This document shows, in pieces, positions 45,001-48,000 of a stretch of DNA of 62,297 bases. How positions within the stretch are numbered: position 1 is the first letter of the stretch; each line of letters starts with the position of its first letter. The position numbers are program-made. The stretch is from Escherichia coli (GTDB lineage: Bacteria > Pseudomonadota > Gammaproteobacteria > Enterobacterales > Enterobacteriaceae). The DNA is taken from assembly GCF_024298765.1 (NCBI RefSeq), contig NZ_CP101213.1; one strand, given 5' to 3'.

Positions 45001-48000
45001 CCCTTCAAACCATATTGTTCCTGGCTTATTCACAGATATTTCTGTGACATGTTCAATATTAAGAACAGACTGGATACCCGTCATATCCAGATATCGTCTT
45101 GCGGTTTTACTGTTATCTCGTGGTTGTGATGTATTACTGGTATCTCTGATGTTATTCATATCAATTGCTTTACTGAATTACTGAAGTTCATATACGGATG
45201 AAAAGTCGATATTTCGCGGAACAATAACAGACAATACAGTCCCCTGATTAATATATGCCGTGGGGGGAATATTTATCGTATTGTCCAGCGTTGTTTTTGC
45301 CATTTCTTTTGTTGCGTCAGATGTGTTTTCGTAGGTGATATTGCTGTTTGAGCCTGTTTGTTGCGTGCTGTTTTTCAGAATATCTAAACCATCACCAAGT
45401 AATGACAGCAGCAATGCACCACCAAAACGCTGACCAAAATGATTATCGACCCATGCAGGAAGGCCGGAAGCACCCAGACTGTCAGTGCCAAGTGCGCCAA
45501 TGCGCACATTGACATTTTCATCTTTGAGCGTTGTCCAGTTAACGAACACACGGGCTACTCCCTGTGTCATGACTTTATTCTGCTCCCCGATCAGTAATGC
45601 TCCTTTACGGGCAAGAAGCACTTCGCCGTTATCCGACCAGACGTCTCGTGTTAACTGACACATTGTGATACCGGGATAAGAGGTTACGATTTTCGTTTTG
45701 AGCACACAGGATAATGCTGTTCCCGCAGATAACAGATATCGGCGGTTCAGCACAGGGGATACCTTTCCGTCTGCGTACTGACTGCCCTGTAAATCATCTC
45801 TTTCCTGGTTTTTTTCGCCTTGTTCCTGATTGTCGATCTTCACCATTGTGTCGCCCATCAGTTGTCGGACGGATTTTGGCAATGGTTGTGGTTGGTTTGG
45901 ATCTCCACTGGCGGTTTGGGGAGTGCCGTTGGCTATCACATTGACGGCTGTTTGATCGGCCTTTTGTGATGCTGGCGCTGACGGGGCATTGTCTGCCTGT
46001 TTCTGTTCTTGCTCCTCCTGTGCTTTCCTGCGGTTAGCGGCATCGAGTTTTTCCTTTTCTTCGATGTTTTTCATCATTGTTGTCAGTGAAACGCCATTGT
46101 TGGTATTTGTGACCAGTGTCTCGTCAGACTTCTCAAGAGGTGTTTGCTGAACGACCTGTTCTCGTGAAAGAACTTTAAACAAGATAATGATCACAAATAA
46201 CGCGGCAATCAGTAATATGATGAGGATTAATATTTTTTTTGGTGCTGCTTTACCTTTTACTTCGATAATTCCGCGATTTCCCGCGTCATTATTTTTTTCA
46301 TCATCTTTATTTTTCATAGCTGAACTTCTCTACTCGTGTTTTTCCGTTTGACGTACCTTTTTTATTCCACGGACGATTAACGATTGATGATGTTCTGATA
46401 TCTGCAACCTGATCACCCAGGCGCAAACGGAGATTTTCAGCCACGTCATAGTAAACCATTGTGTTTTTATTTCTGTCTCCGTTAACCAGATGTTCATTTC
46501 CATCGGCATCAACACGATAAAGGACCGGAATTTCCTGTTTATTAGTCCATCTCATACATGTAAATTCGCCATTATCCCATACCTGATAAGGGAAAATTGA
46601 TTTGTCCCCCTTGAGTTGATAATGACCATTAATTATTCCACCATCAGTGCATGGAAATGGCTTTTCAGTCATTACGGTAGCTGACGGTGGTTTCGGATAA
46701 TTAAAACGCAGAATATACGTGGGTTGTTTCGTGGTTGATATCAGGTAAAGAGGATATATATGCTTATTGGTCTGAACGGTAACGTTTGTATCCGGTTCTT
46801 CTGCTTTTGGACGCAGAAACAGAGTGTTGTCCCTGACCGATACTGACCAGGCTTCTGGATCACCAATTCCGACATCTTTTATTGTTTCGTCTTGTCCGAA
46901 CTTAATTGTTGTTTGTGCGCCTGCTTTTACGCGCACATTAAATACATCCTGCTCGTTATAATCTACGGTCTGAATACGCCCGTCTCGTTCCGATGGTGTG
47001 CCGTACATAGCTGCTAAAGCACCAGGTACTTGTAGCATCGACAAAAGAACTATCGCAGTAGTGCGTTTAAGCATCATTTTATAACCTCTGGATCAGGTTG
47101 GTAGCTCAGAACTTGCAGTCCCAGCGGATTCACAAGGCGCTCTTTTTCTGTTTTGATATCTTTATCCCAGTCAAAAGAAATCGTCGAAATCCACTCTGTT
47201 GCTCTGTATCCGGGGGCGGGTTTACCAGATAAATCCAGTACCATTTTTTTGAAACGCACCTGCGCCATATCCTTCCTTAGAAGGATTACTGAATTAATCT
47301 GGACCTTAATTTTGTAGTTGTTTTTCAGAATGTTCAGTGGTGAGGAATCAGCACGAATCATGGTGTCATAAGCTGAAAACACCTTTTGGGAAGACATTGT
47401 TTTTACTGTATCGGCCTGTTCCTGGATAGTCTGCCAGTCGTATGCTTCATAGTTAATGAGATATTTTGACAGGAAATATTTAGTCTCAACATCCTGATAA
47501 CTTTCCTTAGCATCAGATAATTGAGGGGCAATATCAGTATATCCAGTGCTGTTATCCACTCGCACAAGGAACGGTACAGCGGTTTTTAATGGAGCAAGGG
47601 AGGCTATTGCGAAACCAAGAATGCAAATTACAACAAATTCACCAATGGCGAGAATGGTAAATGTTTTTGCCTTTTTCTTTATGATTTCAATTTCACTACG
47701 CTCAAAGTCACGTATGGCCTTGAAATAATCCTTTTTTTCGTTCTTTTCTTCAAATTTCTTTTTGGAGGCTTCTTTTTTTGAATGTTCATAATAGTTTGTG
47801 TTTTCCATTAATAATCACCTGCTTTGATCTGTTCAATTGCTGTGTTTAACTCAAACCATCCCCCTTTTTTCTGCACAGGATTGGGGGTGTGAGAACATGC
47901 ACTAATTAATAGCGCGGAGGCAATTATGAGGGGGATTTTCATATTGTTTTCCGTTCTGTATAAAACAGAGAAATTAACCGTTCAGGCGTTTCAGGAGTTC

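Follow-up and report, generated by a model that had tools for sequence, protein, structure and literature searches.

TraF of IncI2 plasmids, a predicted VirB7-type lipoprotein, and a paralogous module at the N-terminus of PilL

We analysed a stretch of 62,297 nucleotides from Escherichia coli (contig NZ_CP101213.1 of assembly GCF_024298765.1), hereafter the window, which represents an IncI2 conjugative plasmid. Our subject is traF, a short open reading frame (ORF) between virB4 and virB8 in the operon of a VirB/D4-type type IV secretion system (T4SS), together with pilL, whose product is a lipoprotein of the type IVb thin pilus. More than 500 PLSDB plasmids, typed IncI2/MOBP/MPF_T, match the 5-kb stretch around traF at 95% identity or higher. 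Considered jointly, the data make it very probable that traF is a genuine gene for a VirB7-type lipoprotein and that the N-terminus of PilL is an ancient paralogue, found only in the PilL of IncI2 plasmids.

The traF reading frame

The features of traF and of its immediate neighbours are as follows.

47808..47942, minus strand: traF, gene for a 44-residue lipoprotein of predicted VirB7 type (ORF and sequence; identity to R721 traF; orthologues upstream of virB8)
47895..47942, minus strand: signal peptide and lipobox of TraF, residues 1–16, ending in LISAC (sequence; Cys invariant in an alignment of 19 sequences)
47930..47939, minus strand: AAAATCCCCC directly after the traF ATG (site of a poly-C tract of 6–9 C, mostly frame-breaking, in one IncI2 sublineage)
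47841..47864, minus strand: putative VirB7 signature G-G-W-F-E-L-N-T, TraF residues 27–34 (motif scan, alignment, hhalign, AlphaFold2 strand F-E-L)
47074..47808, minus strand: virB8 (traG) (Pfam VirB8, E 5.9e-42; start overlaps the traF stop)
46307..47077, minus strand: virB9 (traH), predicted partner of the VirB7 peptide (Pfam CagX, E 3.7e-50)
47974..50331, minus strand: virB4 (traE), upstream neighbour of traF (annotation of identical plasmids)

The 44-residue product, MKIPLIIASALLISACSHTPNPVQKKGGWFELNTAIEQIKAGDY, opens with a positively charged n-region and a hydrophobic core that lead into the lipobox I-S-A-C, with Cys16 as the lipidation residue and a Ser at +2 that fits sorting to the outer membrane. 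The ATG lies 31 nt beyond the end of virB4 at 47974 and is preceded, about 9 nt upstream, by a weak GGAA Shine-Dalgarno sequence. At the other end, the TAA stop (47808–47810) overlaps the ATG of virB8 (47806–47808) as TAATG, and virB8 has a Shine-Dalgarno sequence of its own, AGGTG, within the last codons of traF. An earlier note on this DNA had described both the lipobox and the overlap, and the sequence bears it out on each.

The same note had called the ORF unannotated, which holds for part of the records. Most RefSeq records that we inspected carry no coding sequence (CDS) between virB4 and virB8, and a few list a “hypothetical protein” there, WP_000701233.1. The ORF is, however, nucleotide-identical to the region of R721 annotated as traF, a name used in the R721 and TP114 records, and Supplementary Data 1 of Neil et al. 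2020 gives for TP114 “traF = R721 traF (virB7)” and lists traF as “Core” in IncI2. The gene and its VirB7 label are thus already known and are not new. A word-indexed protein search with the ORF returned near-identical IncI2 copies only, and across more than 400 plasmids of the main IncI2 lineage it is intact and invariant or nearly so.

TraF as a VirB7-type lipoprotein

TraF has the size and sorting signals of a VirB7 (about 40–60 residues with a signal peptide and lipobox Cys; here 44 residues and LISAC), and its gene has the position of one, within the virB operon immediately upstream of virB8. Comparable ORFs occur well beyond IncI2. A tblastn search of all plasmids found a 44-residue homologue, MRATIALLLICFLSSCSSPPQPKQAEGGWYELNTTIQDVKARTM, in about 63 p35K-like E. 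coli plasmids with the same kind of T4SS, where the start codon of the ORF overlaps the virB4 stop (ATGA) and its stop codon the virB8 start (TAATG); the fetched region of the two p35K-like plasmids inspected holds no pil genes. An exhaustive profile search with the module over 1.84 billion (1.84e9) representative proteins gave seven matches, among them two further small lipoproteins, one encoded between virB4 and virB8 (locus L005) and one between virB6 and virB8 (locus L006), the latter being the canonical VirB7 slot in the order virB6, virB7, virB8. Another orthologue lies upstream of virB8 on a Pantoea chromosome (L009). These TraF orthologues are 44–48 residues long, share the motif and stand directly upstream of virB8, with no pil genes in the fetched flanks.

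Two other matches of the profile search, a repetitive 516-residue protein (P0129) and a 2761-residue protein, were low-complexity or repeat matches and were discarded. The roughly 1800 extra records returned by tblastn with the Pantoea orthologue, including the “Cag12 family” lipoprotein of IncX3, matched at the level of the signal peptide (E 3–5) and were not counted as family members.

To place TraF among VirB7 proteins more broadly, we fetched 80 VirB8-anchored loci, extracted the lipoprotein ORF upstream of virB8 and aligned 19 diverse pairs of VirB9 and VirB7. Two residues, the lipobox Cys and one Asn, do not vary across the 19 loci, and a Gly six residues upstream is almost constant. The W-F-E-L-N of IncI2 aligns with P-F-P-I-N in Advenella and Neisseria and with R-I-P-I-N-K, as well as with R-R-P-L-N-R of the rhizobial and Brucella type and H-T-R-P-L-N-K of Bartonella. 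TrwH (…EPVNKTVP…) and TraN (…VPVNKTIP…), whose sequences were checked against PDB entries, share the core.

For a structural view we used AlphaFold2 (AF2) on a single chain in which mature VirB9 was followed by a 30-residue Gly/Ser linker and mature TraF. The linker had a predicted local distance difference test score (pLDDT) of about 30, while the block VQKKGGWFEL (positions 271–280) reached a mean pLDDT of 76, and DSSP assigned a beta-strand to F-E-L. Because such a strand needs a partner and VirB9 is the sole folded part of the chain, the model suggests that TraF may pair with VirB9. The modelled VirB9 part matches TrwF (8rt6_B, E 1.4e-21), the C-terminal domain of TraO, which binds its VirB7 (2ofq, TMt 0.79), and, by fold, the VirB9 C-terminal domain in the Xanthomonas complex 2n01.

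Position, size, lipobox, the G-x-W-[FY]-E-L-N signature, the orthologues in T4SS loci lacking pil genes and the AF2 strand together support the earlier proposal of a VirB7-type component. Judged from its sequence, TraF is a VirB7 orthologue of a distinct sub-clade, marked by Glu in place of Pro and by a G-G-W before the motif. We consider it somewhat probable that TraF binds the C-terminal domain of VirB9.

A separate observation concerns virB9 itself: its longest ORF in the window encodes 256 residues (MMLKRTT...) with a plausible signal peptide (…PGALAA|MYG, the bar marking the predicted cleavage site), whereas the RefSeq product starts at a later Met and has 233.

A VirB7-like module at the start of PilL

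The PilL-like ORF (52583..53818, minus strand) encodes 411 residues, starting MKKIIIIPTTLLLNACSHAPEPAQAKGGWYELNTTIEQVRADTYY, with the lipobox LNAC. It is divided into three parts, a VirB7 module (residues 1–44), a linker of about 140 residues and an ordinary PilL/TcpQ C-terminal region; it is given here with the other pil genes that matter below.

53687..53818, minus strand: PilL residues 1–44, apparent paralogous VirB7-like lipoprotein module (BLASTP against TraF, E 3e-18)
53267..53686, minus strand: PilL residues ~45–184, a Pro/Gln/Ser/Thr-rich linker (translation; not conserved with other PilL)
52583..53266, minus strand: PilL residues ~185–411, common with IncI1-type PilL and including the TcpQ domain at 325–407 (PF10671, E 8.7e-15; tblastn)
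52140..52577, minus strand: pilM (Pfam PilM; annotation)
39910..41553, minus strand: pilN, secretin-like outer-membrane lipoprotein of the thin pilus (annotation of an identical plasmid)

The TcpQ domain, pilM directly downstream and pilN after the virB block agree with PilL being a TcpQ-domain lipoprotein. The block virB1–virB4, traF, virB8–virB11 and virD4 lies on the same strand between pilL-pilM and pilN-pilV (window positions ~39910–53818, minus strand), an arrangement that Cooper et al. 2014 (PMC3893438) described for an IncI2-type plasmid as “virB1-4, virB7-11 and virD4” inserted between pilM and pilN. The genes virB5, virB6 and eex stand apart, upstream of the main block (~55433–57078), and traF follows virB4 in IncI2 because virB5 and virB6 are located elsewhere. 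A 2025 paper on the IncI2 T4SS counts 12 VirB/D4 subunits in IncI2. The gene kikA/trbM adjoins pilL here and virD4 in related plasmids.

The earlier note had pointed to a likeness between the mature N-termini of TraF and PilL and suggested a pairwise alignment. Run with BLASTP, this alignment gives 26 identical (59%) and 33 positive residues of 44, with no gaps and an E-value of 3e-18, far beyond chance. The likeness is more than a shared signal peptide, since it runs 28 residues past the lipobox Cys, and PilL keeps the whole motif G-G-W-Y-E-L-N-T-T-I rather than the lipobox alone. A module serving only as a lipid anchor is not expected to retain that motif.

Among PilL proteins the module was found in those of IncI2 only. 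In tblastn, PilL of over 2200 other plasmids (IncI1/B/O/K and others) matches across residues ~184–411 alone, at 28–37% identity, and the PilL N-termini of IncI1 and IncFIB plasmids are unrelated to the IncI2 module. The exhaustive profile search returned the IncI2 PilL cluster as the only long protein with the module, and plasmid tblastn found two peptide-matching places per plasmid in IncI2 records only. A word-indexed protein search with PilL was uninformative, giving at least 120 matches, all of those listed at 98% identity or more.

The two copies parted long ago. Between traF and the 5' end of pilL the proportion of synonymous differences (pS) is 0.90, which is saturated, against a nonsynonymous proportion (pN) of 0.21, and conserved residues are written with different codons (GGG/GGA/GGC, GAG/GAA, TTA/CTG/TTG, AAC/AAT). 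From the saturated synonymous sites and the differing codons we conclude that the duplication is old. Across the module copies pS is 0.74–0.97 against a pN of 0.15–0.34, and on this substitution pattern the PilL module is under purifying selection. Compared with the VirB7s of other plasmids, the PilL module (pN 0.15–0.22) is nearer to the family consensus than IncI2 TraF (pN 0.29–0.34), and it is 63.6% identical to the Pantoea protein. Were the stand-alone gene under the tighter constraint, TraF should be the less diverged of the two copies; the data show the opposite. The reverse derivation, in which traF would be a fragment copied from the 5' end of pilL, was ruled out by the orthologues in the VirB7 slot of loci whose fetched flanks hold no pil genes and by the saturated synonymous sites.

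In an AF2 fusion of VirB9 with PilL residues 16–50, the corresponding block had a pLDDT of 84, a strand at Y-E-L and the same short helix as in the TraF fusion. Binding of the PilL peptide to the VirB9 C-terminal domain, as this model would have it, is in our estimate nearly as probable as its opposite.

Apparent dispensability of traF and its poly-C alleles

In the transposon sequencing (Tn-seq) of TP114 by Neil et al. 2020, traF was scored “-” (non-essential) in all conditions, with all other tra genes scored “++”. The earlier note had named a lack of effect of deletion on transfer as one outcome that would speak against its reading. Published Tn-seq indeed shows no effect of disrupting traF, but the result is ambiguous, as PilL could be redundant with TraF: Tn-seq is blind to such redundancy because traF mutants keep PilL and most pilL insertions spare the first 45 codons. 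There is precedent for a dispensable gene of this kind in Brucella, where virB7 is dispensable in a mouse model.

In an IncI2 sublineage comprising about 80 of 514 PLSDB records, a poly-C tract of 6–9 C replaces AAAATCCCCC after the traF ATG. Among the best 60 records of the sublineage, the tract is C8 in 36, C6 in 14 and C9 in one or two, all out of frame, and C7, in frame, in eight, so that the traF frame is broken in about 50 of these 60 listed plasmids. The counts come from match lengths, and the DNA was read directly for seven plasmids (L090, L094, L095 and L098–L101). Restriction of tblastn matches to residues 18–44 was rejected as a sign of frameshift, since in-frame alleles (MNPPLII...) are shortened likewise; the frame was read from the DNA. 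The DNA of the frameshifted alleles holds no canonical alternative start, and the remainder of the poly-C alleles is intact save for P20L and E37G. One frameshifted plasmid, pChi7122-3 (C6), is reported to be self-conjugative, and in another, pBK15692 (C8, traF out of frame), PilL residues 1–44 are identical to those of the window.

The variation in poly-C length could reflect phase variation, fixed pseudogene alleles or, in single records, homopolymer sequencing error. Sequencing error is unlikely as the main cause, because C8 turns up in 36 independent records and C6 in 14, and these records cluster by plasmid size. In some NCBI records a 50-residue “traF protein” (MQNGKQYAPPLIIAS...) is listed; it needs a non-canonical start further upstream and looks like a rescue of the out-of-frame C9 allele.

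These data also qualify the translational coupling of traF and virB8 that the earlier note had read from the TAATG. The overlap is real, but coupling is not obligatory, because virB8 has its own AGGTG, transposon insertions in traF do not block transfer and pChi7122-3 is reported to conjugate with a frameshifted traF.

Interpretation and alternatives

The explanation that we consider best overall, and probable, is that traF is the VirB7 equivalent of the R721/TP114-type VirB/D4 T4SS of IncI2 and that its paralogue in PilL is able to occupy VirB7 sites. After export, TraF would receive its lipid at Cys16 and be sorted to the outer membrane. The mature protein (C-S-x-x-P-x-P-x-Q-x-x-G-G-W-F-E-L-N-T) would then contribute a short strand to the C-terminal beta-sandwich of VirB9 (traH), the mode in which TraN docks on TraO and TrwH on TrwF, and this docking would give the outer-membrane core complex its anchor in the outer membrane. 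The N-terminus of PilL would occupy VirB7 sites on VirB9, making the stand-alone TraF redundant and tying the pilus secretin module PilL-PilN to the secretion channel. That either peptide binds VirB9, that the two are redundant and that the machines are physically tethered are all inferred steps.

The earlier idea of a common docking peptide linking the T4SS and the thin pilus is plausible and is somewhat strengthened by the finding of the PilL module in IncI2 PilL only, by purifying selection on it and by an AF2 model resembling that of TraF. The further proposal, that PilL in fact stands in for TraF and ties the PilN secretin complex to the core of the T4SS, is tentative, and we regard it as appreciably less probable than VirB9 binding by the PilL peptide; it fits the interleaved operon, the Tn-seq results, the frameshift alleles and a PilL copy that is the better conserved of the two. 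The same doubtful standing belongs to its fuller form, in which the working VirB7 of IncI2 would be the N-terminus of PilL, a chimera plugging into VirB9 at one end and into the PilN secretin complex at the other and so coupling the thin pilus, which stabilises mating pairs, to the DNA-transfer channel, with traF a redundant copy being lost, dispensable in Tn-seq and frameshifted in a widespread sublineage.

Several observations weigh against this reading. In the P-[ILV]-N-[KR] motif that contacts VirB9, the Asn and the preceding Leu/Ile align, but the Pro is Glu in the TraF clade. Two profile comparisons support a VirB7 identity, but within limits. In hhalign the ELNT clade aligns to the canonical group from Cys through Asn at an E-value of 5.8e-5, though with a probability of only 66%. 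A clade profile run against the PDB (177,635 sequences) ranked TrwH first (E 1.1e-5) and TraN second (E 0.13), which relates the clade to VirB7 proteins of solved structure, yet the significant part of the match extends over signal peptide, lipobox and P-x-P-x-Q only. Neither the traF ORF nor four clade relatives were matched by any Pfam or NCBIfam model, at E-values up to 1–10. The AF2 fusions are supportive only and indirect, as the alignment was shallow (19–20 rows), the chains were fused artificially and the strands were read from pLDDT and DSSP. On the genetic side, the non-essentiality of traF is unlike VirB7 of some other systems and fits a T4SS that needs no VirB7 function as well as it fits redundancy, and disruption of pilL was without effect on in vitro transfer of TP114 (Neil et al. 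2020).

That last result also suits the main rival, in which the PilL N-terminus is a recombination relic: insertion of the virB block between pilM and pilN would have joined the 5' end of a virB7 to pilL, leaving a cassette for export, lipidation and anchoring only. The tra block does sit inside the pil operon, and other PilL proteins work with unrelated N-termini. We nevertheless judge this improbable, because PilL residues 17–44 stand under strong purifying selection despite saturated synonymous divergence and lie nearer to the VirB7 consensus than TraF does, because the ten-residue motif beyond the lipobox is retained entire, and because AF2 places the PilL segment as confidently as TraF. 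Much less probable than a relic is a shared peptide that binds some partner other than VirB9 common to both systems, such as PilN, TrbM/KikA or peptidoglycan. The departure of the motif from canonical VirB7 (Glu for Pro, an added Trp) would suit it, as would the position of kikA/trbM beside pilL and, in related plasmids, virD4; yet the alignment is continuous with canonical VirB7s across VirB8/VirB9-linked loci, and the same peptide occurs in T4SS loci without pil genes in the fetched flanks, so PilN is not the ancestral partner.

Decay is a further candidate, with traF functionless across IncI2 and the ORF of the window just unbroken so far. The Tn-seq score and the roughly 70 PLSDB plasmids with frameshifted alleles, self-conjugative pChi7122-3 among them, speak for it. 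Against it stand the intact ORF in the main lineage and its “Core” listing, frameshifted alleles that carry no lesions beyond two amino-acid changes, and orthologues conserved at the protein level; we hold decay to be quite unlikely, if a little less so than a partner other than VirB9. A chance ORF with a coincidental likeness to PilL is refuted by the data and keeps practically no probability: all that speaks for it is that the ORF is short and is skipped by most automated annotation, set against the E-value of 3e-18 to PilL, in-frame orthologues in five or more divergent loci and purifying selection at the codon level.

The literature that we searched holds no mention of a PilL-VirB7 chimera or of poly-C frameshift alleles. 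A PilL that starts with an old, conserved VirB7 copy while traF looks dispensable and is often frameshifted is therefore apparently undescribed.

Significance

Major carriers of mcr-1 and of CTX-M and KPC genes, IncI2 plasmids owe their efficient transfer in the gut to the thin pilus. If the VirB7 peptide of PilL is functional, there would be a physical connection between the type IVb pilus and the VirB-type channel, which would account for the interleaving of both gene sets in one operon and for the apparent dispensability of traF; one short conserved peptide-VirB9 interface would then be a target for blocking both machines. Should the PilL module be a relic only, the finding shrinks to a small gap in annotation, with pipelines tending to overlook a virB7 gene that is already known.

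Observations on related loci

The metagenomic T4SS relative L005, whose fetched contig lacks pil genes, encodes directly after trbM (12296–15511) a 1071-residue intimin/invasin-like protein (IAT_beta, Big_1, Invasin_D3), which could be an alternative mating adhesin replacing the thin pilus. On the p35K_like plasmid of E. coli O157:H7 ATCC 43888 (L003), the T4SS is annotated as short fragments, for example a 200-bp VirB9 piece, with the VirB4 and VirB8 CDS unlisted; the copy in L004 is intact, and the fragmentation suggests a degraded element or an error-rich assembly. Both of these p35K-like plasmids are typed “IncX4” by MOB-suite, yet they have an IncI2-like T4SS with a VirB3 gene and a VirB7-type ORF. 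IncX4 mcr plasmids are described as lacking VirB3 and VirB7 in a 2025 paper. Since the p35K-like “IncX4” plasmids carry both, replicon type and T4SS type are decoupled there.

Comparison with known systems

The closest structural references are TrwH of R388 and TraN of pKM101, minimal VirB7 lipoproteins solved within the outer-membrane core complex (PDB 7o3j, 3jqo, 2ofq). Like them, the TraF group comprises lipoproteins of 44–48 residues with a lipobox, encoded immediately upstream of virB8. A Pro-rich stretch follows the Cys in both TrwH (C-A-S-A-P-K-P-K-Q-P) and TraF (C-S-H-T-P-N-P-V-Q-K), and a core of the form hydrophobic-x-[VLI]-N-[KT]-[TA]-[VI] is common to PVNKTV and PVNKTI of TrwH and TraN and to FELNTAI of TraF. 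Unlike TrwH and TraN, TraF has Glu for the Pro of P[ILV]N, a conserved G-G-W before the motif and a C-terminal tail predicted to form a short helix, and it is matched by no curated family model; its gene follows virB4 and is reported to be non-essential in the TP114 Tn-seq. The traF of the IncI2 plasmids R721 and TP114 is identical in sequence to that of the window, with no difference in the gene itself.

On the pilus side, Neil et al. 2020 found PilL to be needed for thin-pilus-dependent transfer in the gut. PilL of the IncI1 R64 type and TcpQ of the Vibrio toxin-coregulated pilus are, like IncI2 PilL, outer-membrane lipoproteins whose genes accompany pilM and pilN. R64-type and IncI2 PilL are conserved in the C-terminal region with its TcpQ domain (28–37% identity over residues ~184–411), whereas the N-terminus is unrelated in the former and is the apparent VirB7 module in the latter. 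The IncI2 locus also differs in gene order, pilL-pilM being split from pilN by the whole virB1-virD4 block.

Precedents for such an architecture are VirB7 of Xanthomonas citri and CagT of Helicobacter, larger lipoproteins in which the peptide that binds VirB9 forms the N-terminus and a further domain decorates the core complex. There the further domain is part of the T4SS; in IncI2 PilL it belongs to a different machine, a type IVb pilus, and a stand-alone VirB7-type protein is encoded as well.

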